Origin: an uncultured Candidatus Rokubacteria bacterium
GTDB taxonomy: Bacteria > Methylomirabilota > Methylomirabilia > Rokubacteriales > DASRDR01
Length of the DNA: 64,000 nt
Assembly (NCBI GenBank): GCA_963805625.1
Contig: CAWDVE010000016.1
Span: forward strand, 256,001-320,000
Direction of reading: 5' to 3'
This document shows positions 45,649 through 64,000 of the stretch, piece by piece. Below the pieces are notes generated by a model. The model had not been told where the DNA came from, made no database searches, and saw nothing but the letters and a program-made list of their open reading frames with translations. Made by a program: the position numbers and the translations under genes. Positions within the stretch are counted from its first letter, which is position 1. Each line of letters starts with the position of its first letter.

Positions 45649-45724
45649 GCCGACGTAGCTCAGTTGGTAGAGCAGTCGATTCGTAATCGACAGGTCATCG
45701 GTTCAAGTCCGATCGTCGGCTCCA
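45649..45724 (+). tRNA. tRNA-Thr (anticodon CGT)
   Basis: 76 nt. Acceptor stem gccgacg/cgtcggc, D-arm AGCTCAGTTGGTAGAGC, anticodon arm gtcga-ttCGTaa-tcgac, T-loop TTCAAGT, encoded CCA. Confidence 0.97.
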
Positions 45725-45796
45725 GTCTTTCCAGCACTTCCACCACGCCGCTCCCGCCATCGATCGAAACTGTGCGGGATTTGTGCGGGTGCGCCC

Positions 45797-46996
45797 TCAC
45801 CGGCCGGTGTCGGCGGCGTTCTGGATCCGCGTGACGGTTCCGGCGGGTCGGATCGCTAGGCTGGCCTGGGTTCGAGCGAGCGCCTCGCGGAGGTCGTCTT
45901 CGGCCACGATCCGGTAGCGCCGATACACACTCGCCGTCTTGTGCCCGCTGAGGGCCATGGCCACGGCCTGGCTGACTCCGGCGCGATCCATGTTCCGCAC
46001 GGCCGACCGCCGGAGGTCGTGGAAGAGGGTCCCGGACACCCCGGCCGCCGCGCAGGCGGTCTCCCACGCCTTCCGGAAATCGCCGACCGGCTGGCCGTCG
46101 CGGTGAAAGACGAGCGGGGACAGCGCCGACGTTCCATCGGGCGTCTGATACTCGCGCGCTGCCCAGCGGCGCTCGATGAGGGCGGCTAGGTTCCCGAGGA
46201 GCGGGAGGACGCGTGGCTCGCCGTTCTTAGAGTGCTCGCGTCGCAGCACAATGCGCTCGCCACCCCGGTCCACGTCGGGCCACCCGAGCGTCTGCACCTC
46301 ACCCTTGCGCCAGCCAGAGAGATAGGCGAACTGGGCCACGTCCTGGAGATCCGCCGGTAGCACCGACACCACCCGCTCGAAGGCGGCGGGCTCGAGGAAG
46401 CCCTGCCGGGCGGCGGTTTCCTTGAGAAGCTCGACCGCGGGCGCCACACTCAGGCGTTTCTGGCGCACGGCCAGTCGGAACGCGCGGATGAGCGCCGCGA
46501 GCTCGCGGTTCACTGTGGCGGGGGACACGCGGCGCTTGCCGATCCCGTAGCGCGTCCGGATGAGGCTGGCGAGTCGATCGGCCTTGTACCGTTCGATCCG
46601 GGCCTCGGTGACGTCGATGGCGCGGTCCTCGCCAAAGGTGGCGCGGAGCGGGCGGAGGCGCCAGCGGAGCCCACGCGCGGAGCGGCGCCTGTTGTTCTGG
46701 TAGTCCAGCTCCAGGGCAACGAATAGCTCCTCCATCCGGACCTTGTCCTCGCCGAACACGAACCGGCCGCGGCCGATCTCTTTCCAACGCTTCTTCAGCT
46801 TCCGCCAGGCGTCCACCTCGCGTTCGCTCTTGGTCGACTCGCGGTAATCCCGCCCCTGGTGGCTATATCGAATCGACCAGATGCGTCCGCGCCGGTAGGC
46901 ATACCCGAAGCCATGGGGGATGCTCTTTGGGCGCGCGGTATCAGCGTCGGGCTCGATCGGCGTCTCGGGGTCAGTGCGGAGTTGCTCGTCGCTCAT
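45797..46996 (-). CDS. Tyrosine recombinase/integrase
   Basis: Catalytic motifs SGWRKGE, KNG, FHDLRRS and GHKT..RY; ATVNRELA in the core-binding domain. Confidence 0.95.
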   Translation of the reverse strand: MSDEQLRTDPETPIEPDADTARPKSIPHGFGYAYRRGRIWSIRYSHQGRDYRESTKSEREVDAWRKLKKRWKEIGRGRFVFGEDKVRMEELFVALELDYQNNRRRSARGLRWRLRPLRATFGEDRAIDVTEARIERYKADRLASLIRTRYGIGKRRVSPATVNRELAALIRAFRLAVRQKRLSVAPAVELLKETAARQGFLEPAAFERVVSVLPADLQDVAQFAYLSGWRKGEVQTLGWPDVDRGGERIVLRREHSKNGEPRVLPLLGNLAALIERRWAAREYQTPDGTSALSPLVFHRDGQPVGDFRKAWETACAAAGVSGTLFHDLRRSAVRNMDRAGVSQAVAMALSGHKTASVYRRYRIVAEDDLREALARTQASLAIRPAGTVTRIQNAADTGR

Positions 46997-47214: not shown

Positions 47215-47254
47215 GCCGACGATGTTAGCTGATGCGCTCTCGTTAGTCAATGAG

Positions 47255-48220: not shown

Positions 48221-49188
48221 GGGGCTTCCGAGCGGGCGGCCGCCTCGACGAACCGCCCCAGCCGCCTCTGGAAGAGGTAGGCCCCCTCGGTTGCTTGGCC
48301 ATGGCGGTTTTTGGCCAGGTAGAGGCGGACGAGCAACGGGTCCTTCTGCTCCGGGCGGTCCTCGGCGGTCCAGAGGAACAGGATCGCGTCGGCCTCCTCC
48401 TCCACGTTCCCGCTGTCCCGGAGGTCGGCCAACCGCGGCCGCGGGGAGTCCCGGCGCTCGACGTCCCGGTTGAGTTGGTGCAAAGCGACGATCGGGACGC
48501 CGAGTTGTTTGGCGGTCGCCTTGAGCCCCTGTGCGAGCTCCCCGACTTCGAGGTAGCGGCTGTCCCGGCGCGTGCCTCGCATCTTGCCGAGGTGGTCGAC
48601 GAAGACCGCCTGCGCGCCATGTCGGATCACGGCGCGGCGGATCTGCGCCGCGGCAGCCGCGACGGTCGGCGCCGTGGCATCCCAGAGATGGAAGCGACTG
48701 CGGGCGATTGCCTCCAGCACCTTCGGCAGTTCGCCAGGTGCGTACCGGCCGGCTCGGAGGTCCTGGGTGCTCTTGCCCAGCATCAACCCCTGGAGGCGCA
48801 GGCCGATCTCCTCGGTCCGCATCTCCAGGGTCGCGAAGAGCACCGGGTGCCGCCCCACCACGCTCAACTGGTGGGCGAGCTGGAGGCCCAGGGCGGTCTT
48901 CCCCATCCCGGGGCGCCCCGCGATGACCACGAGGTTCCCGCGTCGCAACCCGTCGCACGCTTCGTCCAAGATCCGAAGTCCCGTGGGCAGCCCTGGATCG
49001 GCCGGGGCCGCGACCATGAAGGCGGCAAACTGCTCAGGCGTGAGGATCCCGCTCGCCGTGCGCGAAGTCTCTAAGTCGAGCAGCGCGCTCACGATCGTCG
49101 CGACGACCGCGGTCGTCGTGGCGGACCCGTCCGATTCGGCCGCCTGAATGGTCAGCTCGCGCCCGATCTGGCGCACGCGCGGGGGCAT
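48217..49188 (-). CDS. DnaB-like helicase, C-terminal domain (N-terminal domain missing)
   Basis: PTGL..LD, AGRPGMGKT, TLEM, VDHL, LHQLNR, PRLADLRDSGNVEEEAD and AKNRHG motifs. Confidence 0.9.
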   Translation of the reverse strand: MPPRVRQIGRELTIQAAESDGSATTTAVVATIVSALLDLETSRTASGILTPEQFAAFMVAAPADPGLPTGLRILDEACDGLRRGNLVVIAGRPGMGKTALGLQLAHQLSVVGRHPVLFATLEMRTEEIGLRLQGLMLGKSTQDLRAGRYAPGELPKVLEAIARSRFHLWDATAPTVAAAAAQIRRAVIRHGAQAVFVDHLGKMRGTRRDSRYLEVGELAQGLKATAKQLGVPIVALHQLNRDVERRDSPRPRLADLRDSGNVEEEADAILFLWTAEDRPEQKDPLLVRLYLAKNRHGQATEGAYLFQRRLGRFVEAAARSEAP

Positions 49189-49197
49189 TCTCGTCGT

Positions 49198-49434
49198 CTA
49201 CTCCAGCCGCGCCGTCACCGGCACGCCGAGCCGTCGCCGCGTCCGAGCCCACAGGGTCGTACTGGCCTTACGCGACAGGCCGACCGTCCCCGCGAAAACG
49301 AGAAAGCCGGCCTCGTCGTTCGCCCGCGCCAGATCGACCAGCGCCATCGCGGGCTCGGTGTGGAGCCCGCCGGCCACGAGCACAAGAGCCGCCACCACGA
49401 ACGACACCACCTCCGCGCGCGTCGGCAGGATCAC
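49198..49434 (-). CDS. Hypothetical protein
   Basis: Co-oriented 78-aa ORF with a hydrophobic N-terminus. Confidence 0.45.
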   Translation of the reverse strand: MILPTRAEVVSFVVAALVLVAGGLHTEPAMALVDLARANDEAGFLVFAGTVGLSRKASTTLWARTRRRLGVPVTARLE

Positions 49435-49469
49435 GGCTTCTTGACTTCCATCTCTCCGGTGGAGTCTAG

Positions 49470-49742
49470 CGGTCGCCCTGCAGGGAGACGGTGAAGGCCC
49501 GAACGCCGGCCCCGACGTACTCGGGGAGGACGGCCAGGAAACTCGTCCGTGTTCGCCTCGGGGTCAAAGCTCGGCAATGTGGTGTCCTCGAAGACGGCAT
49601 TCACCATCCGCACGTTCATCAGCCGGCCTTTCGCGTCCGCCCCGGGGTAGGTCACTCTCTCGTTGATGTAGAAGTGCGATCCGACGATGCTCACGTGGGT
49701 GCCGCCCGATGAGGACGGCGCGGCCGTCGGCGACAACGTCAA
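49470..49742 (-). pseudogene. Frameshifted downstream domain of the 49739-51109 gene (possibly glycoside-hydrolase-like)
   Basis: FYINERVTYPG..GRLMNVRMVNAVFED..FDPEANTDEF, then a frameshift to LAVLPEYVGAGVRAFTVSLQG, then truncation. Confidence 0.55.
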
Positions 49743-51109
49743 GGTCGTTGGTCAACGACCGTGAAGCTCTGCGTCTTCGCGGTGCCACGTGTCCCCCCCG
49801 CGGAGGCCTGCGTGTACGGGGTGGCGGTCACGCTGTGGGTGCCGAGCGACGGCGTCCAGGCGGTGTAGTTGTCCCCGGCGCCGCCGGCGAGCGCGTACGG
49901 GTTCTCGTTCTCTATCCGGTAGTTCGCGTTGCTGTCATACCCGAACCGCACGCTGCCGACGGTGGACGGCGCAGTGTTCGCGCGGATGTTGAGTCTTCGG
50001 GTCGGCAGCGTGGCGAGGTTCAGCGTGGCGCCGTTCGGCAAGGGATCGTACCCGGGGATGGGCGCGTCGGTATCGGCGTTGATGAGGGTCAAGCTCACCA
50101 CCGTCGGCGACAACGTCGTTTGGTCAACGACCGTGAAGCTCTGCGTCTTCGCGGTGCCACGTGTCCCCCCCGCGGAGGCCTGCGTGTACGGGGTGGCGGT
50201 CACGCTGTGGGTGCCGAGCGACGGCGTCCAGGCGGTGTAGTTGTCCCCGGCGCCGCCGGCGAGCGCGTACGGGTTCTCGTTCTCTATCCGGTAGTTCGCG
50301 TTGCTGTCATACCCGAACCGCACGCTGCCGACGGTGGACGGCGCAGTGTTCGCGCGGATGTTGAGTCTTCGGGTCGGCAGCGTGGCGAGGTTCAGCGTGG
50401 CGCCGTTCGGCAAGGGATCGTACCCGGGGATGGGCGCGTCGGTATCGGCGTTGATGAGGGTCAAGCTCACCACACTCTGGGTCTGCGTCGTGGGAGGAGA
50501 AGCCGCGGTGAAGGTCGCGCCGACCGTGACGGGCGCGTTGCCCGTGAACGTGCACGGGGCCGTGCCGGTGCACCCGCCGCCGCTCCAGCCGCCGAACGTC
50601 GAGCCACTTACGGCCGTGGCAGACACCGTGACCACCGTGCCGCTCGAGTACGTCTCGACGCAGTCCGTGCCGCAGCTGATTCCGGTCGGGTTACTGGTCA
50701 CGGTTCCCTGGCCGGTTCCACCGACGCTCACCGTGACGGCAAGGCCGCTCGCCGTGTCTCCGCAGGCTTCGTTCGAGTACGGTGACGACCCAGCGTCGTC
50801 GTACGCCTGGACCCGGTAGCAGTAGGTGATCCCGGCGGTGACGGTCCCGTCCGTGTATCCAGTGACGCCGGGAGGCTGTTGGACGAGATCTATGTATCCG
50901 GTGTCTGTACTGACTCGCCGCTGCACATTGACGGCGGCCTGTCCTCCCGAGTTGTCGACCCACGTCAACTGGAGCTGACCGGCGACGGCCGCCTGGCTTG
51001 TGAGGGCGACCACTAGCGCCAGCAGGGTCGCGCCCACGTCGAGTCGGGCGCGGCGGCCGGAGTGTTGGAATGATCGGACGACTCGCGATCCGCGGACATC
51101 CATGGGCAT
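49739..51109 (-). CDS. Secreted FN3 + InlB-B-like + two Ig-like repeat protein (probably frameshift-truncated)
   Basis: Signal peptide; YCYRVQAY..YSNEAC; GISCGTDC..FGGWSGGGC; two identical ~118-aa domains. Confidence 0.8.
   Translation of the reverse strand: MPMDVRGSRVVRSFQHSGRRARLDVGATLLALVVALTSQAAVAGQLQLTWVDNSGGQAAVNVQRRVSTDTGYIDLVQQPPGVTGYTDGTVTAGITYCYRVQAYDDAGSSPYSNEACGDTASGLAVTVSVGGTGQGTVTSNPTGISCGTDCVETYSSGTVVTVSATAVSGSTFGGWSGGGCTGTAPCTFTGNAPVTVGATFTAASPPTTQTQSVVSLTLINADTDAPIPGYDPLPNGATLNLATLPTRRLNIRANTAPSTVGSVRFGYDSNANYRIENENPYALAGGAGDNYTAWTPSLGTHSVTATPYTQASAGGTRGTAKTQSFTVVDQTTLSPTVVSLTLINADTDAPIPGYDPLPNGATLNLATLPTRRLNIRANTAPSTVGSVRFGYDSNANYRIENENPYALAGGAGDNYTAWTPSLGTHSVTATPYTQASAGGTRGTAKTQSFTVVDQRP
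49748..50473. repeat. Direct repeat, 2 x 354 bp, period 372 bp
   Basis: 49748-50101 and 50120-50473 read identically by eye and give identical translations in several frames. Confidence 0.92.
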
Positions 51110-51164
51110 CCCCTCCCGTTAGAACGGTAGACAGCGATCGCGGGGAGCCCTTCGTCCAACCCTT

Positions 51165-51248
51165 CTTCGGCAGCCTGGCTGCTAAGCGCCATCGCTTGGC
51201 CCATGGCTTTGCGTCCCCGCCTCACGACGGGTTTGCCTTTATCGGGAA
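51165..51248 (-). ncRNA. c-di-GMP-I (GEMM) riboswitch
   Basis: CGATAAAGGCAAACCCGTC-GTGA-GGCGGGGACGCAAAGCCATGGGCC...CAGCCAGGCTGCCGAA matches GGCAAACC/GNRA/GGGACGCAAAGC/..GCCG. Located ~55 nt upstream of the CDS. Confidence 0.9.
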
Positions 51249-51764
51249 GGGTTCCCACTACCGTAAAGCTGCGGCAAGTCAGTGCAAGGAATGTACAATC
51301 TTCGACAATGGGGTGGGGTCGCTTAAATTAGCTCAAGAGTACGGCTAGTTAGGACCGACCGTCCAGTTTCGACCACAGCCAGCTGAGTAAGATTCACTCG
51401 AGAAGGTGGGTCAAAATGGCCGTGCGGGGCATCTTCGTGTCAGCCGCCGAGTTTACACGATCCGCCCAGCGATCGAGTCCGTTGTCCCGTCACCGCTCCT
51501 GGCGGTGTCATGGATCGTCTGATCCGGTCTCTGACCTCCGTCGGCGTCAGCGACGGGACCCAGGGATACGCCAGCGCCATCAGCTCGGCCCGCCCGCCGC
51601 GATGGCGCGGGCCAGGGCGGCTGGCTCGGCTCGCAGGAGTATGATCGCTTTTCCAATCTCTGGCGTTGACAGCGGCCGCCGGTTTTCCAGGGCATTCAGG
51701 AGTCCCGGGATCAACGTCCCGAGGCGTCCCTCGAGCGCAGCGTGCCTCTCGTGCGTGGCGAGGC

Positions 51765-51788
51765 AGTCCTTCGCCAGAACCTCATCCG
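51765..51788. repeat. IS terminal inverted repeat (left)
   Basis: Reverse complement of 51764-51788 matches 61549-61573 at 20/25 nt. Confidence 0.7.
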
Positions 51789-51978
51789 ACTCGGTTGACG
51801 ACGGCCGACGCTCTCGTGAGAGGCGAAGGAACGCCAGGAGAGCCTGGACAGGGGGTGGGAAGCAGGGCAGTCAGGAGTCGGGCCTGCTACGGAATGAGGT
51901 GGGGTGGAGTGTGGACTGGGATCGCGAGCGGTCTGACGGCGGGAAGGTCCCGGGGCGTGACGGCTGGTGGGGGCTGAC

Positions 51979-52110
51979 TCAGGCCGCTCGCCGGACGTAG
52001 CGATGATGCAGACACCGACTTCGGGACTCGAAACCACCGTGCCCATCGCCGGGCGCTCGATGGGCCTGGCGTCCGGCGGATCCTTCTCCAGTGAGAGGTG
52101 AGTTCGAACG
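51979..52110 (-). pseudogene. C-terminal remnant of an rve/integrase-core (IS3/IS481-like) transposase
   Basis: RTHLSLEKDPPDARPIERP..VVSSPEVG, then a frameshift to LHHRYVRRAA*. Confidence 0.75.
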
Positions 52111-52156
52111 CCATGACATTACGTCAAGGCACTGGGTACATAATGATAGTGACATG

Positions 52157-52495
52157 TCATCCCGCCGCCGGTCCCCCGAGGATGCCAAAGCCGCGGCCCT
52201 CCGCGTGAAGAAAGCCCACGCCGGGGCGCTGCGGGCCCGCGAGCAGCATCGTGCCTCGCAGGTCGAGGATCGAGCCACGGCGATCCGCGCCGAGGGAGAT
52301 CGTCCGGCGGCTGCCGGTGGCGTTCCACGAGCCTCCGAATTCCAGCCACTCACCGGCTGCTCCCTGCGGTTTCGGCCCCTCCGTCGCCGGCCCGCCGGCC
52401 GTCGCTGCAAGGGCCAGGGCGAGCAGTGCGTGACGCCACGACACGCCGCCGGGAAACCCTCGATCGTGCGACCGTGTCCGTGTGCGCAAGCCCAT
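52157..52495 (-). pseudogene. Truncated secreted hypothetical protein
   Basis: Signal-like HALLALALAA then EWLEFGGSWNATGSRRTISLG..RPGVGF; ends abruptly. Confidence 0.4.
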
Positions 52496-52945
52496 GGTTC
52501 GCTCAGGTGGTTGATGGCCCTGCCGGCCACTGCGATGGAGTTGGGGATTCCGATACCCAGGTGCGGCGCGAACTCCTTGACGTCGTGCGATCGTGCATTC
52601 CGTGCTCATGTCGTTTCCCTGGGATCGGGGGACGCCAGCGCCGCGCCGCCGGATGGTTGGAAGGTGTCAGGGTTCCCGTGCCGCGGGAACCCTGCCCTCA
52701 CGCGAGCAGCAGGATGGTGACCATGCCCCAGGTCGTGAGCAGGAACGTAGGCGCTCCAAAGCATGTTTCTTGTCTCCCCCACCGGCCTGGAGCGCCGGTG
52801 GCCGCAGTCTAGGACGCGGCGGAGCAGCCCGGCAATGGCGTCCCGGGGTCGGCGCAGGCGGCCCCGGAGGCTCCCTTGAGCCGGCGAACAGGTGGCGGAC
52901 AGGCGGGGACGACGGCGTCCCGTGGTGGGCGCCTTGCGCGGCAGG

Positions 52946-53330
52946 TCAGACGGCCGAGACCGCCTGCCCTGGCGGCGGCTCGGCGGCGAGCCCGAGCGCC
53001 GCGAGGAGCCGTCGCATCGCGTGCGGCTCCGTCACCGCCCCAGAATCCGGCGCGGGCCGCCGCAGCGCGGACAGACCCGGGCCTGGATCGCAAACACCCG
53101 GCGCAGGAGCTGGGCCGAGGGCCAGCGGCGCGGAACAGGCGTCGACGCCGCCCGCGCGTCGGCCGGCGCCGGCGGCGGGACGATCGCCGATCTCCAGCGG
53201 GCACGCGGGGCCAGGACGCCATGGTAGGCCGGCAACGGCCGGCGCGGCGGGGGGACGAGCGCGGCCAGCCGCTCCAGCGGATCGAGGAGCAGCGCGGTCG
53301 AGCCGTCACGCCATGGTCGGCGGAAGTGAG
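52946..53330 (-). pseudogene. IS91-family (Y2) transposase C-terminal remnant
   Basis: RPWRDGSTALLLDPL..RLAALVPPPR..YHGVLAP..LLRRVF..CPRCGG, then a frameshift to AVTEP..RRLLAALGL. Confidence 0.8.
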
Positions 53331-53372
53331 AGCAATGCTGCCCCCTGGGACTTGCCGGGCTGCTGCCCGGTA

Positions 53373-54011
53373 CTATGCGGTCCCGGGCCGGCTGGTTGGG
53401 TTGAGCGATTTGAAGGCGAACGCCGCCGCGGCCCCTCCCAGCAGTTCCGCAACGATGTAGAGCCACAAGTTGGACCACGGGAGCAGGCCCCGGATCGAGG
53501 CGCCGATGGCGACGGCCGGGTTGAAGGCCGCTCCCGACACCTGGCCGACGGCGAATGCGCCAGCCAGGACCGTGAAGCCGATAGCCAGACCGAAGTAGGA
53601 ATTCCCGTCTGTTGCGTCGGCTGTGGCCACGTTCAACACGACGTACACCAGCGCAAACGTGAAAAGGAACTCGGCCAGAAATACCCCAAATACGGTGGCA
53701 TGGAATGGACTCACGGGCGCGCCGCGAAGGGCGAAGCCGATGATCCAGGCCGCGCCGGCGGCACCGAGCAGTTGCGCCCCCCAGTATGGCAGCAGGTCCG
53801 AGGCAGGACACCGCCCCCGCAGGAACACCCCGAGCGTGACTGCCGGGTTGTAGTGGGCGCCCGAGATGTGGCCGCCCGCATAGATCATCGCCATCAGCAC
53901 GGCCCCTATGGCCAGCGGAGCAATCACGCCCGGAGCCGCTGCGAGCCCCGTGCAGCCGATTGTCAACACGAGAAAGAACGTCCCGATGAATTCCACGGCG
54001 TACTTACGCAT
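53373..54011 (-). CDS. MIP/aquaporin family channel
   Basis: EFIGTF, HISGAHYNPAVT and SGAAFNPAV (two NPA motifs). Confidence 0.95.
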   Translation of the reverse strand: MRKYAVEFIGTFFLVLTIGCTGLAAAPGVIAPLAIGAVLMAMIYAGGHISGAHYNPAVTLGVFLRGRCPASDLLPYWGAQLLGAAGAAWIIGFALRGAPVSPFHATVFGVFLAEFLFTFALVYVVLNVATADATDGNSYFGLAIGFTVLAGAFAVGQVSGAAFNPAVAIGASIRGLLPWSNLWLYIVAELLGGAAAAFAFKSLNPTSRPGTA

Positions 54012-54579
54012 GGCGCGTCCTTTCGTCCTGATCGGCGGACCTCTTGTTATCGTGCGCGGCCGACGACATCAGAATCCTAGGCGGTCCAAATCCTGTTTCC
54101 GCCCCCTCCCCGATCCCGCCGTCAGCCCAGCGGGCGCATTCCCAGGGTGGCCGGACTCTAGCGCGCGGCAGGCCGGTCCGACAAGGCCGGAGCGAGCCGG
54201 GGCGGCTTGGGGAGACGTAGTGAGAACCGGCTCCCACGGGTCGGCGGGCAGACTGGGACGGCGGCGGGAGGTGGACGCCGGGATCGACGGCGGGTCACGA
54301 GGCGGTGATCATGGCAAGCCTGCGCACCGTAGTGAGGCAGTTCGTCCTGGAACAACATCGCGAGGTCCTGAGTCTCACCCCCCGGGACTGTTGCCCCGTA
54401 TTGACAATTCCAGGGAGCGTCGCGGGGCGGGCGGCAGCGTGAGCGCAACGCGGAAGGCAAGTGCTTCGCCCACAAGCCAAAGCGCCCCCCGCAACCACGC
54501 TTCGTGGTATTAGCTCGAGAGCCGGACTCCGTTGGCGACCTTCTCCCCGTCGTCTGTCTTCGGATGCGGCGCGCTCACC

Positions 54580-55386
54580 CTAGGCTGCCCGCTGACGCAT
54601 GTGGACGTGCGCCTCGGCCGCAGGATACCCCGCCGCGCCGAAGGTCGCGCGAATCGACGCGTTGGTGTCGAAGTACACTTGCCAGTAGTGCGCGTTGTTG
54701 CAGTAGGGCCGCACGGCGAGGACCGGTCCCCGCTCAGTGAACGTCAAGATCTCGACGTCAGGCTTTGGCTCGGCGATCACGCTCGGAATCGTCGGCAACA
54801 CTGCCTTCAGGCGGCGGATCGCGTCAAGCGGATCCACACTGTGGTCGATCTGCGCCAGAAGCTCCACCCGGCGATACGGATTGCTGCTAAAGTTCTTGAT
54901 GGTTCCGCCCATGATCTTCGCGTTCCCGACCAGCGTCTGAACGTTGTCAGGGGTATCGATCGTGGTGCTGAACAAGCCGATCGCCCGCACGGCTCCCTCG
55001 ACGTCACCCGCCATGACGTAGTCGCCGACCTTGAATGGCCGGAGCACGAGGATGAAGGTCCCGGCAGCGAAATTGGACAGAAGCCCGCCCCAGGCCGCGC
55101 CAATCGCGACGCCGAGACCGGCCACTAGAGCGGCGAACGAGGTGGTCTCGATCCCGAAATAGCCTAGGAGCGCGACGACAAGAATGACGTTGAGCGCGAC
55201 GGTGACGACTGATCGAAGATAGCCGATGACCGTCGGCTCCACCTGTTTCCGCTCGAGCGCGCGCGTGAGGAGCCTGGCGGCAAGGCCGATCAGCTGGCGG
55301 CCGACGACGAAGGCGACAATCGCCCCCAGCACCTTGAGACCGAACACAATCAGAATGGGTCGGGCTGATTCAAGGATCTCGGGCAT
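54580..55386 (-). CDS. MscS-family mechanosensitive channel
   Basis: TTSFAALV..GVAIG..LSNFAAG..RPFKVGD..IGLFST motifs. Confidence 0.93.
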   Translation of the reverse strand: MPEILESARPILIVFGLKVLGAIVAFVVGRQLIGLAARLLTRALERKQVEPTVIGYLRSVVTVALNVILVVALLGYFGIETTSFAALVAGLGVAIGAAWGGLLSNFAAGTFILVLRPFKVGDYVMAGDVEGAVRAIGLFSTTIDTPDNVQTLVGNAKIMGGTIKNFSSNPYRRVELLAQIDHSVDPLDAIRRLKAVLPTIPSVIAEPKPDVEILTFTERGPVLAVRPYCNNAHYWQVYFDTNASIRATFGAAGYPAAEAHVHMRQRAA

Positions 55387-55639
55387 GTCCTGGGCTCCTC
55401 GTTGCGGGTGGTGGGTTGGACCTCGCGCCTCACTCCAACGGCACGGCCGATAGCCGGGCGGGAGCGAGCTTCATGTCGACTACCACGTCGAGTCGTCAAG
55501 CCATGTGCCACACAGATGCGCGACCTGCTCGACGCCTCGGCGCCGTATGCTTCGAGCTGTCCCCGCGGTGCTCTGTCCTCGCCCCGGGTCGAGCGCGCGG
55601 GCGGTTCGCCGGTGCACACGAGGGAACCGGTTACGTCGA

Positions 55640-55785
55640 CCCGAAGAAGTTGGCGGCCTAGTTCGTCGGTCTCGCCAGAGTGTCGCTCGCATTCGGCCTT
55701 GGCCTACGTTGGCTCCCGCCATCCGTCACCCCGGCTGTAACGTGAATCCCGCCGTGACGGTCGGCTTGTGGCCGGAGGGTCCGCA
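55640..55785 (+). pseudogene. Aquaporin Z N-terminal remnant
   Basis: KKLAA*FVG..VSLAFGL, then a frameshift to TLAPAIRH.GCNVNPAVTVGLW, resembling the AqpZ N-terminal half. Confidence 0.65.
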
Positions 55786-56330
55786 GACCTTAGGTTCCCA
55801 AGCGCGCTCTTGATCATGGCGCGCCTCCGGCCCGGGAGCCTGCCCGGGCGGGACTACGGTAGCGCACCTCAAGGCGCGGCGCGAGGCGAGTGGGCCGACT
55901 CGGGACGCCGAGGGCTGGCGCGGCGCGGCCCTCGGCTCGGCCGGCAGACCGAGGCGGCGGGGGGGTGGGGACGCCATGATGAGACATGTGATGGGATGGT
56001 GGTCGCGCGGCTGGGGCCAGCAGGGTCTGGAGGCGGCTCGGCCGCCAGCCTGAAGGCCGCGCGCAACAGCTACGAGTTCGGCGGCCAGGCCTCGCTGGCC
56101 GGATGTCGCCGTGAATCGTGTGCACCAGCGGGCGTGACAGGCGTAGGGTCATCCCCTACGGAATGAGATCGATCCAGTATGTGGTCCGCTCTGTGTAGCA
56201 CTCTGCAAATCCAGCCCTCGATTTGAACCAGCGACTCTTGAGGGGCTTGAGGTTTTAGTCCCGTCGTCTTTTCCGGGCCGATTGTGCTAGATGCCATTGA
56301 GTTCGTTGGCGAAAACGTGATCGCGGCTCA

Positions 56331-56351
56331 AACACGGGTTCGAATCCCGTT
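56331..56351 (+). other. Isolated tRNA T-arm fragment (att-like remnant, tRNA-Glu-like)
   Basis: aacACGGG-TTCGAAT-CCCGTt with no D-arm, anticodon arm or acceptor stem. Not derived from the tRNA-Thr. Confidence 0.6.
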
Positions 56352-56460
56352 AGCCGACGAGGCGAGCGCGGCGTAGAGCGAGAGGCTCGGATCGGCGCGC
56401 GTTGCGGCGCCGGATGGACAGAACCTCCGGTCGAGAGTTGACGCGCCGCACTACCGTTCG

Positions 56461-56550
56461 AAGCGGACAAGCGGACACCCTATAGGAAAGAACCTGTCCG
56501 TCCGGTTCGTACGGGACCACGAATGGGTCCCCGTACTCACGAACCGGACG
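56461..56550. repeat. Direct + inverted repeat cluster (origin-like)
   Basis: aagcggac x2; perfect 12-bp IR cgtccggttcgt/acgaaccggacg enclosing a second imperfect stem. Confidence 0.5.
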
Positions 56551-56605
56551 TGCGATCCGGATGTCCGGGCGGCCAGTTCGGCAGGCACGCGTCCGCCCTC
56601 CCTCC

Positions 56606-57085
56606 TCATCGGCTGGCGAGCGCCCACCGGCAGGGCCGAGTGCCGTCGACGAGGACCACGCGCCCCTCCTCGCGGAGGCGCCGCACGGCGCGGCCCACGG
56701 TGGCCCCGGGCGCGCCCATCTGCTCGGCGAGCTCGGCGACCGTGAGGGCGCCGGCGGCGAGGGCGACAGTGACGCGCTTGCTCACGCTCGTGCGGGCGAT
56801 GAGGTCCGGCGCCTCCGCGAGGTCGGCGTCCGCCACCGTGGCCGCGCTGCTGGACTCGAAGCGGAGACGCAGGCCGAACGAGAGCGCCCGGCGCCCGCCG
56901 TTGGATTTCCGGTGGTAGGCCGCGATCAGGAGCTCGTCGGGCCCGGCCTCCGCGGCGCGGCGGAGCTCCCAGGCGGAGCGCGCGAGGTTCCGGACGAACA
57001 CCGACCCGTAGGGGCGCGCGGCGCCGCTCAGCTGGTCGGCGGCGGCCTTGCTGACGTGCGCGAGCACGACCGCCGCCAGGAGCCG
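56606..57085 (-). pseudogene. RepA/AAA_25-type helicase C-terminal remnant with winged HTH
   Basis: VLAHVSK..PYGSVFVRNLARSAWEL..HRKSN and LTVAELAEQMG..TVGRAVRRL. Walker A region is absent. Confidence 0.65.
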
Positions 57086-57186
57086 GCGGCCGTCTGGGCC
57101 GACGAGGTCCTGAGCGCAGAGAGCGTCTCCCGGATTCGACGAGGGGTCGAGCATGCGGGCTCGACTCGCGCCGGCGCGGCCCCCGA

Positions 57187-58200
57187 TCACTCCGAAGCTT
57201 TTCGACGGTAGTCCGAAGGCGTCGAGCCGGTCCAGCGCTTGAAGGCGCGGTTGAAGACGCTGACCTCCGAGTAGCCGAGCAGGTAGGCGATGTCGGTGAA
57301 CGTGTTCTTCGGGTCCCGGAGGTAGCTGAGCGAGAAGCGCCGGCGCGTGTCGTCAACCAGTGCTTTGAAGTCCACGCCGTGCTCCCTGAGGCGCCGCTGC
57401 AGCGTGCGCGGGGTCATCGCGACCTTCCGCGCCACCCGGGTGAGCGTCGGGTTTCCATCGCGGATCGATTCGCCGACGATGCGGCGAACGGACGCGAGCA
57501 GGGCGTCCTCCCGCGGCATCTCTTTCAAAACCCCGTCGAGGTAGCGCTGGAGAACCGGGTAGAGCCGCTCGTCTGCCGCCGGGATCTGCCGCTCCAGGAA
57601 CGCGCGCTCGACGACGAAGGCATTGGTCGCGCAGCCGAAGGACACCGGCGCGCCGAAGATCCGGCCGTGCTCGGAGGTCTGGCGCGGCGCCTCGTGCGCG
57701 AACTGCACCTCGAGCGGGACCCACCCGCTCCCCACCATCAGGCGGAGCGTGTTCAGCCCGACGGTCATGCTGTACTCGTTGTGCTGGCGAGGGGCCTCGA
57801 TCGGCAGGTTGGCGAGCCGGTGCCGAACATACGCGAGCCGCCCCTCCATGCCGAGAGACACCTGCGCGGCCTCGTTGTGAACGCTCAGGTAGCGCCCGAT
57901 GTTCGTGAAGCCGTCCGCGATCGTCGGCGAGTTCAGCGCGACGTAGGTCAGGGGCCCGACGTCCTTGGGATTGTAGGCGGCGCCGAAGTGGAGGCCGAAG
58001 CAGTCATCGCCCGTGGTCCGGGCCGCCTCTTCGAGGATCCGGGTGAAGTCGGCGCAGGCGATGAACCCGTCGGGGCTGGCGAAGGCCGAGCGCTCCAGCC
58101 CGACCGAGCGCAGGATCTGGTCGGGATCTCCGCCGGCCTCTTCGATCGCCTCGATCAGCCCGGTCGCGGCGGAGAGAGCGATCAATGGTCTCTTGGGCAC
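57187..58200 (-). CDS. AraC-family regulator (Arabinose_bd_2/OruR-like)
   Basis: FGLHFG, MTPRTLQRRL and IAYLLGYSEVSVFNRAFKRWTG.TP motifs. Confidence 0.93.
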   Translation of the reverse strand: MPKRPLIALSAATGLIEAIEEAGGDPDQILRSVGLERSAFASPDGFIACADFTRILEEAARTTGDDCFGLHFGAAYNPKDVGPLTYVALNSPTIADGFTNIGRYLSVHNEAAQVSLGMEGRLAYVRHRLANLPIEAPRQHNEYSMTVGLNTLRLMVGSGWVPLEVQFAHEAPRQTSEHGRIFGAPVSFGCATNAFVVERAFLERQIPAADERLYPVLQRYLDGVLKEMPREDALLASVRRIVGESIRDGNPTLTRVARKVAMTPRTLQRRLREHGVDFKALVDDTRRRFSLSYLRDPKNTFTDIAYLLGYSEVSVFNRAFKRWTGSTPSDYRRKASE

Positions 58201-58235
58201 GACCCGAGTTCCCACATCGGCCCGAGCGGCGAGCC

Positions 58236-58271
58236 GGCCCAAGTGTCAAGCCGGCGACGCGCAATGTCAAG
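58236..58271 (+). promoter_or_regulatory. Putative AraC-type tandem binding sites
   Basis: TGTCAAG at 58244 and 58265 (21-bp period) just upstream of the regulator. Confidence 0.5.
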
Positions 58272-58551
58272 ACGAGGAGCGTCCGACAGACAAGGAGCGT
58301 CCGACACGCCTCGTGTCTACGGCGGAGAAGGCCGTCGCCGCTGCGCCCGGTCCCCACCACCAAGGCAACTCCCGCCTCACGGAGCACCCGTTGGCCGCCG
58401 CTTCCAGGTCCGGATGACGGTCGGGTAGATGTCCAACTCGCTGCTATCAAGTACGAGTCGATTCACGTGTCAAGGAATTGTCGTCGACTGCCAAGACAGC
58501 GTTGCCTGCGACGCACTAGTGTTACGTGGCGCCACGGGTGTTCCATCCACT

Positions 58552-58932
58552 ATGTCTGATGCCCGCCGTTTCCGGATGCTCCTGATCGACGACGATCAGA
58601 ACGTGCGAGAGGTGCTGGCGCAGCTGCTCGCCTCGTTCGGATACGAGTGTCAAACGGCCGGTGACGCCGTGAGCGGGCTGGGTCTCTTCGATAGGGGGGG
58701 CTGGGATCTGGTCCTCCTCGACATCGCCATGCCCGCAATGAGCGGGTGGACGGTCGTGGAGACGATCCGGCGACGCGACCCGCTCTTGCCCATCGTCCTC
58801 ATCACGGGGCTGAGCCAGCCCGCCGTGATGCGACGCGCTCGCGAGTGGCGGTTGCCGGTCCTCCTGAAGCCCTTTCGCTTTGAAACGGTCCAAACGATTG
58901 TGGCCACGGCCCTGCAACCGAAGTCCGCCTAG
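58552..58932 (+). CDS. Single-domain response regulator (REC)
   Basis: LLIDDD, DLVLLDIAMP.MSG, ITG and KPF motifs. Confidence 0.9.
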   Translation: MSDARRFRMLLIDDDQNVREVLAQLLASFGYECQTAGDAVSGLGLFDRGGWDLVLLDIAMPAMSGWTVVETIRRRDPLLPIVLITGLSQPAVMRRAREWRLPVLLKPFRFETVQTIVATALQPKSA

Positions 58933-59399
58933 CACCGGCTGAGTGATCCGCATTTCGTGCTCACGCGTGAGAGGTGATTGGACCAGCCCCAAGGCGGTGT
59001 CCGCCGCGCGGGGCTACGAGGACTTCCGGCGCGAGGGTCCATCGCCCAATATGGGACGGCGGGCTCCCAGCGCCGCAGCGGATTCGCCGTCTGGCCGGGC
59101 TCCCGGATCGGCACCAGCTGCCACCAGCCGTCGCCCACTGGCACCGGGAGGTACTCGGTCGAGCAGTCGCACCAGTCCGGAATCTGCAGCGTCTGGGGCG
59201 GCCGCCACCCATGCGGGCGGAGGTCCTCTGCGCGGAAGCGCATCGGGGCGACCTCGCGCCCACACGTCCAGCAGGCCAGCGTGGGCTGGCGTCGGCCGTG
59301 GGCGTCGAGCCAGGTCGGTAGTGTCACGGTGTCTGGCTTCTCATGGGCGGGCCGGTTGTGGACATTTTTGTCGCGCCTCACTGGACTCTTGCCACGCAC
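58929..59399 (-). CDS. Hypothetical Cys/Trp-rich protein (start uncertain)
   Basis: CWTCG..WCDC..EYLPVP..WWQLVP; plausible metal-binding motif. Confidence 0.45.
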   Translation of the reverse strand: MRGKSPVRRDKNVHNRPAHEKPDTVTLPTWLDAHGRRQPTLACWTCGREVAPMRFRAEDLRPHGWRPPQTLQIPDWCDCSTEYLPVPVGDGWWQLVPIREPGQTANPLRRWEPAVPYWAMDPRAGSPRSPARRTPPWGWSNHLSRVSTKCGSLSRC

Positions 59400-59563
59400 G
59401 CAGTCCGGGGCGCATCCTCAGCGAAACGTCGTCGGCATGGAAGAGTCTAGTTCAGTCAAGCCCCATGCTCCCTTAGGGGACTCCGCGCCCGCCGCGTTGG
59501 ATCTGGCATCGTCTTGCAAGCCTCAGTAAGCTCGACGACCAAAGGAGAGGAGAGACGTGGGCA

Positions 59564-59812
59564 ATGTGGCCAGCACCTCACACCGAGTCCTTCCTGACGA
59601 GCGTTGCGTGGCGGCGTGAGCGCGAATGGGTCCGTCGCCAACCGCTTGCCGTGGCCGAGGGCTATCTGCGAGCGCTCCGGTGTTTCGACCCGGCACCGCC
59701 CGATGCTTGGCCACGCGAGGTGGAGTTGCTGGTTCAATCGAAAGCAACGCAGTCTCGCCCATCACGGCAAGCAGCACGTGACGGGAGGATGATGCACCAC
59801 CGAACTGGCTAG
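59564..59812 (+). CDS. Hypothetical protein
   Basis: Purine-rich RBS upstream; converges on stub S1. Confidence 0.4.
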   Translation: MWPAPHTESFLTSVAWRREREWVRRQPLAVAEGYLRALRCFDPAPPDAWPREVELLVQSKATQSRPSRQAARDGRMMHHRTG

Positions 59813-59819
59813 TCCTGCG

Positions 59820-59878
59820 TCACTACTGGATGATCTCATCTGCCCGCGCCAGCACCGCCGGCGGGATCGTCAGGCCGA
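59820..59878 (-). repeat. ABC_sub_bind C-terminal stub S1
   Basis: Encodes GLTIPPAVLARADEIIQ**. Confidence 0.85.
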
Positions 59879-59879
59879 C

Positions 59880-60045
59880 ACCCCGGTCTGCAAGCCGACG
59901 CAGCCTTTCGCCTTCTCCGCCTGGTAGTACACCTCGCGCTCGTCGTGGAGGTATCCGGTGACATATCCGGTGGCGTGCGGGGTGCTGACGATCCGGTTCC
60001 GCAGTGTCAGCCGACCGGGCGCGGCGGAGTGAATAGGTGGGGAAA
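59880..60045 (-). pseudogene. NADH:flavin oxidoreductase (OYE-like) N-terminal fragment
   Basis: GRLTLRNRIVSTPHATGY..YYQAEKAKGCVGL. Confidence 0.7.
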
Positions 60046-60053
60046 GTGAGAAC

Positions 60054-60122
60054 TCATATTCGATCACCTCATCCGCCCGCGCCAGCACCGCGGGCGGGGT
60101 TCGTCAGGCCGAGCGCCTTCGT
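60054..60122 (-). repeat. ABC_sub_bind C-terminal stub S2
   Basis: Encodes KALGLT(1-nt indel)PPAVLARADEVIE. Confidence 0.85.
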
Positions 60123-60490
60123 GGACTCTTCGCTTTACCCTTCGCTTTCCGCTTGTCTACGGACTTGGAGGTGGGCGAAGGTGGAGCTGCCATCTTCCGA
60201 ACATCCAGCACGACATCGTGCCACCAATGCTCAGCGGGTGCGCTCTCTAGCCCTTCGAGTCGTTGGCGCGTCTCTGCGAATGTCGGATCATGGTGCCATC
60301 CATCCCAGTCCACGCGGGTCCTCCAGGTGCCAACGATCACTCGTTTATCTTCATTGTCGGCGGGGCGAAGGAGTTGTCCTCCTATCCAACCTGGTCGCGT
60401 CCTCGCGGCCGACAGACGCCTGCGCATGACGGCGTCCCAATCTCGTCCGGCTCCTGGCTTCAGGTGCACATGCGTCACGATTGTCTTCAT
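60104..60490 (-). CDS. Antibiotic biosynthesis monooxygenase (ABM) domain protein
   Basis: PGWIGGQLL..RVIVGTW..W..W..F pattern and GGAGG RBS. Its stop lies inside stub S2. Confidence 0.85.
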   Translation of the reverse strand: MKTIVTHVHLKPGAGRDWDAVMRRRLSAARTRPGWIGGQLLRPADNEDKRVIVGTWRTRVDWDGWHHDPTFAETRQRLEGLESAPAEHWWHDVVLDVRKMAAPPSPTSKSVDKRKAKGKAKSPRRRSA

Positions 60491-60529
60491 CGGGAAGCCT
60501 CCAGGCCCGCGAGTGGGCCGCTGTAAGTG

Positions 60530-60567
60530 TCACTCTATTACCTCGTACGCCCGCGCCAGCACCGCGC
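60530..60567 (-). repeat. ABC_sub_bind C-terminal stub S3
   Basis: Encodes AVLARAYEVIE*. Confidence 0.75.
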
Positions 60568-60720
60568 CCTGCGAGCCGATGACAAAGGCCTCCTCCTCTT
60601 CGAGCCCCCGACTGGCCCACTTCCATGCCCCCAGCAGGGCAAGCGATTCCGCGACCGTCGCCGCGATCCCCAGTGTGCGCCGCACGTGCGGAAAGAGGTG
60701 CAGTATGAAGCCTGAGCCTT

Positions 60721-61497
60721 CTGCCACGGGCTCTGGGGCGCGGTCAGTACCTCCCGGATTCCCATGCCCTTCACGCGGTGCCGAAACGCGTGACCGTAGA
60801 TCGTGTCGCGATCGCGGAGGAGGTAGGACGGCGCGGTGTCGTCCGGGAACGCGTCCACGATCTGCTGGGCGGTCCAGGCCGCGGTGGGATGCTCGGTGAC
60901 GTTGAAGTGGACCACCCGCCGCCGATGGTGGGCGAGCACGACGAGGACGAATAGCACGCGCAAGTGCGCGGTGGGCACCGTGAAGAAATCGATGGAGACG
61001 AGGTCCCGGACGTGGGTGGTGAGGAACGTGCGCCAGGTCTGCGACGGCGAGGGGCGCCGCGTTGGCATCAGCCGGGAGACGGTGCGCTCGGCCACGTCGA
61101 TGCCCAGCTTGAGCAGCTCGCCATGGATTCTGGGGGCACCCCATAGGGGATTGGCGGCGGCCATTTGGGCAACCAGCGCGCGGATTTCGGGGGCGACCGG
61201 CGGGCGGCCCACGACGGAGCGGCGGGAGCGCCGGGTCCAGTAGTCGCGGAACCGTCGCCGCGGCCAGCGCAGGACGGTGTCAGGGGGCGACGATGATTAA
61301 CGCCTGCGTCCAGCCTCTCCACAGCCTGGACAGCGCGACCCAAAAGAGCCGGTCGCCGCGGCGCAACCTCGGCCGGGCCACCGCCCTCCTGTACACGGTG
61401 AGCTGCTGGCGCAGGGCGAGGGTCTCGAGGGCGAGCTGGCGGTGGCCGCCGCAGAGGAACGGGAGAGTCGGAGCAGGTGGAGCAGCGTGCTGATCAT
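60721..61497 (-). pseudogene. rve/integrase-core (IS3/IS481-like) transposase, frameshifted and truncated at PQSPWQ
   Basis: LALETLALRQQL, DRLFWV, GRPP, NPLWGAPRIHGELLKLG, DFFTV and YLLRDRD motifs. Confidence 0.88.
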
Positions 61498-61548
61498 GAG
61501 ACGGCCATTGTCTCCGGATCAGAGCCGAGAGATCAACCACTTGGCCAG

Positions 61549-61572
61549 CGGATGGAGTTTTGGCGAAGAACA
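61549..61572. repeat. IS terminal inverted repeat (right)
   Basis: cggatggagttttggcgaagaaca, giving a 5'-TG end on the minus strand ~50 bp upstream of the transposase start. Confidence 0.75.
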
Positions 61573-61791
61573 GGCGGGAGACCTTCCACGGGTGGCCGTG
61601 CGAAGAGGGATCTCCGGGCCGCGACTTTCTGGCCGCCGTCGACCGGGTGCCGCCGGGTCCCGGGGTGTCGTCTCAAGCGCCGTCAGGAGCGCGTGAGGAT
61701 GTCTTCGCCCGGCTGGGAGCCGATGGCCCGCGGCGCGTGCGTCGACTCCGTCACCAGTCCCTTCGGTGGGGACGCTCGTCTCGCGCGCGGC

Positions 61792-62976
61792 TCAGTAGGC
61801 GCGGATCGGGCCGGTCTCGATCACGCGCACCGGGACGCCTTCGATGTCCGAGGGATGGCGGCCGACGCCCCGTCGGGCCTTGGTCGTCACGTAGATCTCG
61901 ATCACGGCGTCGCCATTCGCGTCGACGCCGACGCCATGGCCGACGACGTCCGGCAGGGCGAAGATCTGGTCGCTGTGCCGCGCCGCGACGTCCCGAGCCA
62001 CGGCCAGCCCTGGGGGCGTACCTCGGGGCCGTCCGGGCCCGCCCCCGCCGCTGGTCGGACAGTTGTTCGCGATTAGGTCGTAGTCAGACCGCATTGCGCC
62101 GGGGTTGTCGCCGTCACTGTCGAGGATCATGCTCACCCCTAGTGAAGTGAGGACGGGGTCGATCGGGTTCGCAAAGGTGTCGCTGCCGCCACCAGCGAAG
62201 AGCAGCCCGACCGCGAGCGGTTCTGTGCCGGAAGCCGGGACGGTCACGATGAGCGAGCCCGAATCCCCCGCATCCGAGAATCCGGCGTCGCCGCAGGGAC
62301 GGCGGATCCGGATCTGGTTGACGAAGCGGGCCGTGCCGCTGTCGTAGCTGATGTCGACCGTGACGCCGACCGCCATGACGGTTCCGAAGGTGTGGGCCGT
62401 CGTGCGCCCGGTCTTCTGGACGGCCAGCGTCAGAGTGGCCGCGGTCGAACCGGCCACGGGGCCGATGCCCAGGATCGAGCCGCTCGGATTGACCTGGTCG
62501 GCGTGGACCGCTGCGATCGCCGCGTCCACCGTGTTCTGCGGCTTGTTCTTGCCTTTACCGAACAGGATTTCGACGAAATCGCTCAGGTCCGCCACGGCGT
62601 GGGACGGGTCGCCGCTACTTAGCGTGCACGGTCCCTCGTCGAGCAGCCCCGTCTGGATGATCGTCTCGTTCGCGCTGCCGTAGTTCAGGTTCCCGTTTTC
62701 CTTGGCGAGGACGTGGTTGTTGCTGAGGATGTATTGGACGCCCCCACTGTCTTGGACGAGCGCTCCCAGGGTCCCCGTGTAGCAGTAGAGCAAGCCCCTG
62801 ATGAGGAGCAAGGTCTGGCTGCTGCCCGAAACGCCGAGCGGGATGGGCCGCTCTTGTGTCCTCTCGGTCGTTTCTGTCGCGACGAGGTGGTTGGCAAGGG
62901 CTGAAGGAGCCAGACTCGCCGAGAGCACGATGGCACCTGCGGCCAGCCAGGCCCTGCGAGAGCGATTTAGCGTCAT
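61792..62976 (-). CDS. Secreted trypsin-like serine protease
   Basis: SRRxWL signal; GTLG, LSNNHV, DAAIA, KTGRTT, GDSGS and GLLFAG motifs; extra C-terminal domain. Confidence 0.85.
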   Translation of the reverse strand: MTLNRSRRAWLAAGAIVLSASLAPSALANHLVATETTERTQERPIPLGVSGSSQTLLLIRGLLYCYTGTLGALVQDSGGVQYILSNNHVLAKENGNLNYGSANETIIQTGLLDEGPCTLSSGDPSHAVADLSDFVEILFGKGKNKPQNTVDAAIAAVHADQVNPSGSILGIGPVAGSTAATLTLAVQKTGRTTAHTFGTVMAVGVTVDISYDSGTARFVNQIRIRRPCGDAGFSDAGDSGSLIVTVPASGTEPLAVGLLFAGGGSDTFANPIDPVLTSLGVSMILDSDGDNPGAMRSDYDLIANNCPTSGGGGPGRPRGTPPGLAVARDVAARHSDQIFALPDVVGHGVGVDANGDAVIEIYVTTKARRGVGRHPSDIEGVPVRVIETGPIRAY

Positions 62977-63363
62977 CGACGGCTCCTCCCATCTGTTTGG
63001 ACGGCCCCGGTCCCCGAAAGCGCGGACCATCTCAGGACCACCAGGTTTCCATTACCGCTCCGGCCGGGCCAACGAGATAGCGCCCCCCTCGAGCGCGGAC
63101 GTGTCGGCCAGTGGATCGGAGCAAGAGGGGTGCCAGCAAGAAGCTGTCCGCCGGGTCGCGTGACCGACCGGCGGCAACGGGCCGGTCCCGGGTGCGGCCT
63201 GGCCCTCACGAGCCCGCTAAAGCCGCGTCGCTGCGTGGCTTGCGCTCGAGCTCACGGCCGGTCGGGCTCAGGCCCCTCGCGTCGACCGCCACGCTGCTTG
63301 CGGACTCTCGCCGCGGGCATTTTTCCCTGAATCGGCCTCGTCCAGGATTGAACGCGCCGAAAA

Positions 63364-64000
63364 TTGGTGCGCGCCTATCCCGACCTCCTCATGAGCCACG
63401 ACGAGAAGGTCCTCATCTGGAAGGATGGAACCCGCATGCCAGCCTCGGACGGTCGCGGCGACAAGAGTTTCGAGGAAAAGCTGCGCAGCGCATCGATCCT
63501 GGATCAGCTCTCGATCCCCTACCCCCAAGGGCCACTCGAAAAGCCACCCGGGCTTCAGGAGGATCCTGGACGCTTCCGCAACACGACCTTCTTCGACAAG
63601 ATGTATGGCGACTGCTCGAAGGGCGAGGTGCAGAGGAAACTTGCAAAGGTGGCTTGGCTGCCGAAATCCGGCGGCGGCTCGGTTCAGATCACGACGGTGA
63701 ACGGCGTGGCGGACCGATTGCGCGCGATTTCCGGAGAGCTTGATGCTCTACGGCCTGACCTCAAGACGTTCGCCGTTCCGAGCGCCGGTACGTTCAACTG
63801 CCGCACCGTGAAAGACACCGGCGCCCGCAGCATGCATGCATGGGGCGCGGCCATCGACCTCGATACGAAATTCGCCGACTACTGGCTGTGGAACCCCAAG
63901 GGCGCCCCCTATCGGAATCGCTTGCCTTTCGAGATCGTGGAGATCTTCGAGAGGCATGGCTTCATTTGGGGCGGCAAATGGGGACACTTCGACACGATGC
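63364..64000 (+). CDS. M15-family metallopeptidase (3'-partial; 5' end possibly degraded)
   Basis: Manual translation: AYPD..DPGRFRN..FFDKMYG..GTFNCR..SMHAWGAAID..IFERHGFIWGGKWGHFDTM; open to the window end. Confidence 0.88.
   Translation, partial: MVRAYPDLLMSHDEKVLIWKDGTRMPASDGRGDKSFEEKLRSASILDQLSIPYPQGPLEKPPGLQEDPGRFRNTTFFDKMYGDCSKGEVQRKLAKVAWLPKSGGGSVQITTVNGVADRLRAISGELDALRPDLKTFAVPSAGTFNCRTVKDTGARSMHAWGAAIDLDTKFADYWLWNPKGAPYRNRLPFEIVEIFERHGFIWGGKWGHFDTM

Follow-up and report, generated by a model that had tools for sequence, protein, structure and literature searches.

Introduction

Rokubacteria are abundant uncultured soil bacteria. Two familiar patterns of genome change form the background of the present work: tandem arrays of paralogs, which turn over by birth and death, unequal crossing-over and gene conversion, and islands which, as in the case of tRNA islands, make a second copy of the 3' end of the gene they target and leave a displaced 3' fragment beyond the inserted DNA. 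Integrons are defined by the integrase IntI and the sites attI and attC (PMC3053210). Orphan modules of the Rhs and CDI systems, in the account given in PMC10539506, consist of conserved stubs of a full gene with variable DNA, lie downstream and are exchanged by homologous recombination within the conserved portion. Homology-facilitated illegitimate recombination, as outlined in PMC6382021, combines one homologous anchor with a microhomology joint.

The stretch analysed here (the window, 64,000 nt; G000:C16:256001-320000, G000 being the genome under study) carries three short stubs, S1 to S3. An earlier note had read them as the C-terminal ends of solute-binding protein genes of the PF04392 family (SBP) and had suggested that the SBP 3' end acts as an integron-like att site, at which units of stub and downstream DNA from paralogous loci are stacked. 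Judged from sequence comparison, S1 to S3 are the 3' tips of a hyper-expanded SBP family; we consider it probable that they are leftovers of the deletion of whole copies and that ordinary recombination draws on them as short homology when it swaps their flanks.

The locus and its pieces

The pieces of the locus, with the evidence for each, are as follows.

45649..46351 (no strand given): tRNA-Thr and tyrosine integrase, left end of a predicted 53-kb island (tRNA and integrase searches)
58932..59327 (-): small Cys-containing multicopy gene with a TWLDA motif and no Pfam match, elsewhere often starting on or near an SBP stop
59324..59822 (-): DNA after S1 (88% to G003)
59823..59882 (-): S1, last ~57-60 nt of an SBP gene plus stop (matrix score, length analysis, G003 copy)
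59888..60056 (-): OYE-like 5' fragment, frameshifted, presumably of an old yellow enzyme gene (86% to a 652-aa gene in G017)
60057..60121 (-): S2, last ~65 nt of an SBP gene with a 1-nt insertion, stop lost (C-terminal reading, nhmmer, ABM loci)
60104..60490 (-): complete ABM (PF03992) gene, 128 aa, with SBP ends on both sides in many relatives (profile match, homologue lengths)
60530..60565 (-): S3, last 36 nt of an SBP gene plus stop (C-terminal reading, matrix, second ABM locus)
60566..60718 (+): 3' end of a large serine recombinase gene (sequence match to an insertion in G017)
60719..61575 (-): broken multicopy transposase-like gene, interrupted by the recombinase element and presumably of the integrase-core type (multicopy search; weak Pfam HTH matches only)

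Within the window the core sequence of the stubs has three exact matches, each of them on the minus strand (59842-59858, 60075-60091 and 60549-60565), and the co-oriented trio described before is real; six further matches in the window carry two to three mismatches, and shuffled sequences average 3.2 matches at up to three mismatches. S1 to S3 translate as the C-terminus of PF04392 proteins, and the stub peptide matches the C-terminus of profile-positive PF04392 genes in G000. Their scores of 42-48 bits on a 36-nt end matrix (made from 25 full-gene SBP ends; 62 genome sites reach the threshold of at least 18 bits vs 1 in the reversed genome) likewise bear out the family assignment of the earlier note. 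The PF04392 profile finds no match anywhere on the window's contig, in line with the statement that the window holds no full-length SBP. The shared peptide and stop ascribed to the stubs stand as far as the SBP C-terminus is concerned and fail in detail, as S3 reads AVLARAYEVIE (D replaced by Y) and S2 has lost its stop.

The first codons of S2, in another frame, encode the C-terminus of ABM; 128 aa is the usual length among 120 homologues listed, and the stub-derived tail is common to relatives, the closest of which in genome records are Ca. Rokubacteria / Methylomirabilota. A second ABM copy in G000, 88% identical, lies directly behind a full SBP (C10:1729176), an arrangement foreseen in the earlier note, and the end and spacer of S3 are the same as at this full SBP. 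The assertion that each cargo is cut off at the next stub applies to the OYE-like piece, which corresponds to the first 169 nt of the 652-aa gene in G017, and not to the full-length ABM. The OYE-like start codon falls on the position of the lost S2 stop, from which we infer a former coupling of this gene to S2. Its orthologue in G017, at odds with the expectation of an SBP gene in front of OYE elsewhere, has no SBP end upstream; in the search for SBP-OYE neighbours G017 was the sole match among 183 genomes with two candidates scored per genome, which does not imply absence.

S1 with ~500 nt of the following DNA recurs at 88% in G003; the gene in front of it there is Ku instead of OYE, and the 5' edge of S1 lies within ~5 nt of the edge in G000. 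By eye, the order in G003 (L137:6132-7778) is a Ku gene, the S1 unit and a second, diverged copy of a Ku 3' end. The TWLDA family has 12 tblastn matches in G000 and is found within 2 kb of about a fifth of SBP ends vs 0.6% at random, some members starting on the SBP stop.

What had been listed as an unknown gene fragment beside S3 is the 3' end of the large serine recombinase gene, on the opposite strand and inside the transposase pseudogene; the joint between S3 and this remnant falls in a shared 4-nt microhomology, GCGG. In G017 (L139) a serine recombinase insertion with a long recombinase ORF occupies the same point of the transposase gene. The transposase copies of the two genomes differ, hinting at a preferred target of this element in the transposase-like gene. 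As a maker of stubs the serine recombinase was rejected, since its insertion lies within the transposase gene of both G000 and G017 and not within an SBP.

The whole locus is predicted to lie inside a classical tRNA-Thr island, whose right mark is a 22-nt repeat of the tRNA-Thr 3' end at G000:C16:354599, 53 kb away. Other features of the window are a c-di-GMP-I-GGC riboswitch above the Rfam cut-off (51165-51246, minus strand) upstream of a secreted-looking, repeat-containing ORF (49742-51109), a candidate for a Nal1-like secreted protease with a weak Pfam match (61792-63030, minus strand) and an M15 peptidase (63364-64000, plus strand).

The SBP family and its ends

By nhmmer, G000 holds 37 full SBP copies and 39 fragments, many of the full copies standing head to tail with overlapping stop and start; PF04392 was present in 41 of 41 genomes searched in the order, with 1 to more than 40 matches each. 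A full copy matches PDB entries 3lkv, 3lft and 6hni, and the family binds aromatic amino acids according to PMC10443332.

We counted 30 full and 30 non-full ends in G000, after one chance match had been dropped and two nhmmer stubs added by hand. Twenty-two of the 30 non-full ends are isolated, that is more than 9 kb from any other end (one row was adjusted, its neighbouring full end being below threshold), and all 17 pairs of neighbouring ends within 5 kb are co-oriented; G003 contains one stub oriented opposite to its neighbour. Common orientation was found as the earlier note expected, and most of the non-full ends are isolated.

Fragments are not evenly spread over the gene. Cover by the 39 fragments follows a U shape, with 12 of them over the 5' end and 18 over the tip but 4-7 over the middle third, and matches outside genes number 5-6 for conserved internal windows vs 23-25 for the last three windows, less conserved windows, which are noisy and give up to 54 matches outside genes, being left out. 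All eight short partial matches to a 150-nt model in G003 retain the 3' end. Perfect runs of 15 nt are shared by 24% of paralog pairs in the last 75 nt vs 0-2% mid-gene, and similarity at four-fold sites is 0.51-0.52 at both SBP ends vs 0.34-0.43 elsewhere. The 16S tail of G000 is complementary to GAGGTGATC, which is frequent in the last SBP codons; such a Shine-Dalgarno-like sequence occurs in only 13 of 29 non-full ends, and a start codon lies on the SBP stop in 13 of 29 full and 8 of 29 non-full ends.

A second expanded family of large genes, which we take to be cyclase/TPR genes, served as control; 3' fragments are left there too. SBP arrays often start right after such a gene (10 of 157 SBP 5' ends, among them G000:C10:1968732, C11:167945 and C11:32391). 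Two near-identical SBP loci on different contigs of G000 (C10:1336232 and C13:4225) share their downstream DNA, either by recent duplication or by strain mixture.

Origin of the stubs

One spacer between core genes, presumably subunits of 5-oxoprolinase, contains a full SBP in G000 and G010, the same gene minus 792 nt in frame with both ends kept in G013, and no SBP in G014, G011 and G009. At the site before a gene we take to be purC, 8 of the 15 genomes searched were matched, with three full copies, two stubs and three empty sites; in G009 and G008 (L246, L249) a 10-nt direct repeat starting from the stop codon flanks the SBP there. In the spacer between two genes, presumably uvrB and uvrC, a bare stub of ~36 nt is present in G000; G008 carries another, longer one (by eye, below the matrix threshold), and the 13 others none. 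Stubs can, on these comparisons, arise by plain deletion.

Taken over all loci, the 121 stub-like ends group into 62 junction clusters, 61 after one chance match was dropped. The 61 independent lengths, whose edges are uncertain by a few bases, show a median of 66 nt and are at most 90 nt in 44 cases; they are compatible with an exponential distribution (p 0.14), and no 3-nt window contains more than 5 lengths vs 6.1 expected, which is no peak. The lengths are best read as erosion and not as a fixed cut, and the conserved crossover which the earlier note had proposed to look for at the 5' breakpoints gives way to a smooth decay. That the edge of S1 is conserved almost to the base behind an OYE-like and a Ku gene, which are unrelated, is not predicted by erosion alone. 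The possibility named in the earlier note that stubs are isolated products of ordinary deletion agrees with the 22 isolated ends and the one clean 792-nt deletion; neighbouring ends are nevertheless co-oriented. Retro-copying, suggested by the 3'-anchored fragments, was rejected in view of the many 5' remnants and internal deletions and of the single reverse transcriptase match, which lies 9 kb from the nearest SBP end.

Exchange of flanks at SBP ends

Among 75 distinct ABM loci, an SBP end stands just upstream in 47 of the 69 with enough DNA (36 stubs, 9 full or off the contig edge, 2 by matrix only), and a downstream stub is present in 38 of 65. The 29 loci with an intact stub continue into 16 downstream types; most ABM loci are short-read metagenome contigs in which the stub is a very deep repeat, so that types resting on a single contig could be misjoins, and several types recur in 2 to 11 assemblies. 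In the closest pairs across types homology stops at or before the stub stop in 10 of 13, with homology through the stub being built into the selection of pairs.

Comparison of ABMs at least 93% identical, in pairs that are not independent, addresses the stub itself through 47 non-coding nt: the stubs differ at 1-6 positions where the downstream DNA is the same (6 pairs) and at 6-21 where it is different (28 pairs), vs 1-6 expected. The swapped stubs of these near-identical ABMs still read as SBP ends, and in two instances the new DNA behind them is an SBP start in coupling register. As a rule the stub is replaced along with the DNA behind it. Stub and flank have not always moved together, since the stub of L047 shows 12-14 differences from two loci which share part of its downstream DNA, a pattern that looks like conversion without exchange.

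Upstream flanks change as well. ABMs 87-97% identical follow different SBP paralogs, the SBP bodies in front of the 12 loci that have long SBP DNA upstream being 51-63% identical (one identical pair apart) vs a paralog background of 50-61%. In both G000 and G001 a DUF3237 gene has an SBP 5' block on one side and a 3' stub on the other, its upstream flank switching at the conserved 5' block; with ABM, DUF3237 and three more read from ORFs, several single complete genes are framed by SBP ends.

Shuffling at SBP ends is supported by these sequence comparisons. Two proposals of the earlier note survive here: that a stub and its downstream DNA form a unit from a paralogous locus agrees with the second ABM behind a full SBP and with S1 plus ~500 nt in G003, and that the SBP 3' end is a recurrent exchange point agrees with the ABM flank types, the upstream paralogs and the stub replacement.

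Interpretation and alternatives

In the reading we prefer, deletions would remove a dead SBP copy from inside and spare its edges, presumably in part because the last codons hold the Shine-Dalgarno-like sequence and the start of the next gene. As the tip is the part most similar between paralogs, crossovers and gene conversion would concentrate there, by way of RecA or of slippage between nearby repeats, and a foreign gene landing between two ends would ride the expansion and contraction of the array like a cassette. The trio of the window may be what is left of several such pieces, stacked within a tRNA island and since decayed, two microhomology deletions having later trimmed the S3 edge and the OYE end. 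Against the RecA route it should be noted that perfect shared runs are mostly below the 25-35 bp quoted for RecA in PMC6382021, with a median run of 11 nt; the presence of MutS in G000 also counts against exchange at diverged SBP ends, and the assembled contigs showed no excised circle.

A farther-reaching view, in which SBP ends are a maintained, recombinase-free cassette system across Rokubacteria, a captured gene gaining a ribosome-binding site and portable homology and being copied, moved and re-partnered among dozens of arrays, is offered tentatively and appears doubtful to us; if true, the SBP family doubles as a platform for gene capture and shuffling.

Stubs might also originate by insertion, when incoming DNA with an SBP end (from transformation or as end-joined circles) integrates, either through a single crossover or through homology-facilitated illegitimate recombination; the tip would be duplicated in the process, and duplications would survive only when short. 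ComEC and two Ku genes are present in G000, the S1 unit of G003 sits between Ku ends as read by eye, one SBP site has the 10-nt repeat on both sides, and distant ABMs have an upstream SBP end without a downstream stub. We hold this origin for rather unlikely, given that the sole stub with a clear history came from deletion, that 5' remnants and internally deleted copies are common, that stubs stand in core spacers without cargo and that the comparisons yielded no matching pair of an empty and a filled site in which the tip is duplicated.

Deletion alone, which would leave the stubs as inert scars without a role in later rearrangement, suits the isolation of most stubs in G000 and the loss of the stub in about half of the flank changes between nearest-neighbour ABMs, homology ending just after the ABM stop. 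It is an unlikely account of near-identical ABMs which change to other valid SBP ends, at paralog-level divergence and with new downstream DNA, or of the switching of upstream SBP paralogs.

A dedicated site-specific recombinase that stacks cassettes at the SBP 3' end, treating it as an attachment site, is very unlikely. Its appeal comes from co-oriented single-gene units between repeats, seen in the strict co-orientation of the 17 pairs in G000 and in the ABM and DUF3237 units, from the S1 5' edge conserved behind two genes and from S2, which folds well alone (z -2.8). Besides the missing length peak, the consensus of 40 ends has no attC-like fold (-0.75 kcal/mol, 2 pairs, without compensatory change), single ends range in z from -2.9 to +1.3 with 3 of 5 folded ends lacking stability, and Rfam gives no attC-type match in window 44000-64000. 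For IntI, TIGR02249 is without a match in G000 at E 1e-20; the only one over the cut-off among 15 genus genomes, L266 (G001:C10:95325-96158), is a true integron integrase, and no SBP end was found at its locus.

Searches for other recombinases in G000 gave the same picture: within 2 kb of a tyrosine integrase there are no full SBP ends and 1 of 30 stubs, within 2 kb of serine recombinase or IS110 matches no SBP ends, and tRNAs are not enriched within 2 kb of SBP ends; a stub-transposase link was set aside, since it rests solely on the window's own three stubs. Target-site duplication was not detected at SBP copies (mean match 3.0 nt vs 2.75 in shuffles), and a flanking repeat of at least 8 nt occurs in 3 of 76 copies, two of them being one event. 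Viral contigs gave no match to one strict degenerate pattern of the SBP end, a weak test. Island-type attachment finds neither a cognate integrase at the stubs nor a constant duplicated segment, and the integrase nearby has its own tRNA-Thr repeat. The integron reading with a fixed crossover is largely refuted at the level of sequence; the att-site role suggested in the earlier note and a co-occurring recombinase are not supported.

Chimeric assembly across a multicopy repeat, finally, is scarcely credible, as a 728-nt contig (run X1, possibly the source sample) covers 60069-60796 without a difference, a contig from another study crosses the S3 5' joint, the ABM-stub layout recurs in dozens of assemblies and S1 with its flank in G003, and the window stubs have private mutations, against which stand a genome contamination of 6.3% and the S2-OYE and OYE-S1 joints, bridged by no independent contig in 8 runs (59892-60038 had no cover in these runs, which is uninformative, and runs with a small share were left out of the evidence); the doubt voiced earlier about the assembly is lessened for the spanned parts.

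Comparison with known systems

For our preferred reading, deletion leftovers reused as short homology, the underlying mechanism is probably ordinary; the pattern itself is real, lineage-wide and, it appears, undescribed. In the literature searched, mostly outside subscription journals, we found no description of an SBP expansion in Rokubacteria, of integrase-free cassette arrays or of such behaviour in this family. If a repeated coding sequence is the recombination joint, gene turnover would be integron-like without an integrase, and SBP ends would provide a measurable natural test of rearrangement by short, diverged homology. The 60-nt SBP end is also repeated very deeply in soil metagenomes, where it is likely to cause misjoins.

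Integrons resemble the arrays in their co-oriented single genes separated by ~60-nt repeats, whereas SBP ends are without IntI, a conserved hairpin or a fixed crossover. Compared with tRNA islands, the stubs have no adjacent integrase or fixed 5' edge and frame one small gene only. Homology-facilitated illegitimate recombination would fit the S3 and OYE joints, while deletion explains the single resolved case. The likeness to Rhs and CDI modules consists in the stub of a parent gene being exchanged with the DNA attached to it, here on comparative evidence only; there, the swap replaces an in-frame toxin domain, whereas here what is shared is the extreme C-terminus, stop included, and it is the next gene that changes, the cargos at SBP stubs being ABM, DUF3237 and OYE-like genes, with no toxin-immunity pairs seen. 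Tandem paralog arrays show the same head-to-tail order, internal deletions, edge remnants and homogenised ends; what sets the SBP arrays apart is the apparent travel, as units and order-wide, of single unrelated genes with SBP ends on both sides.
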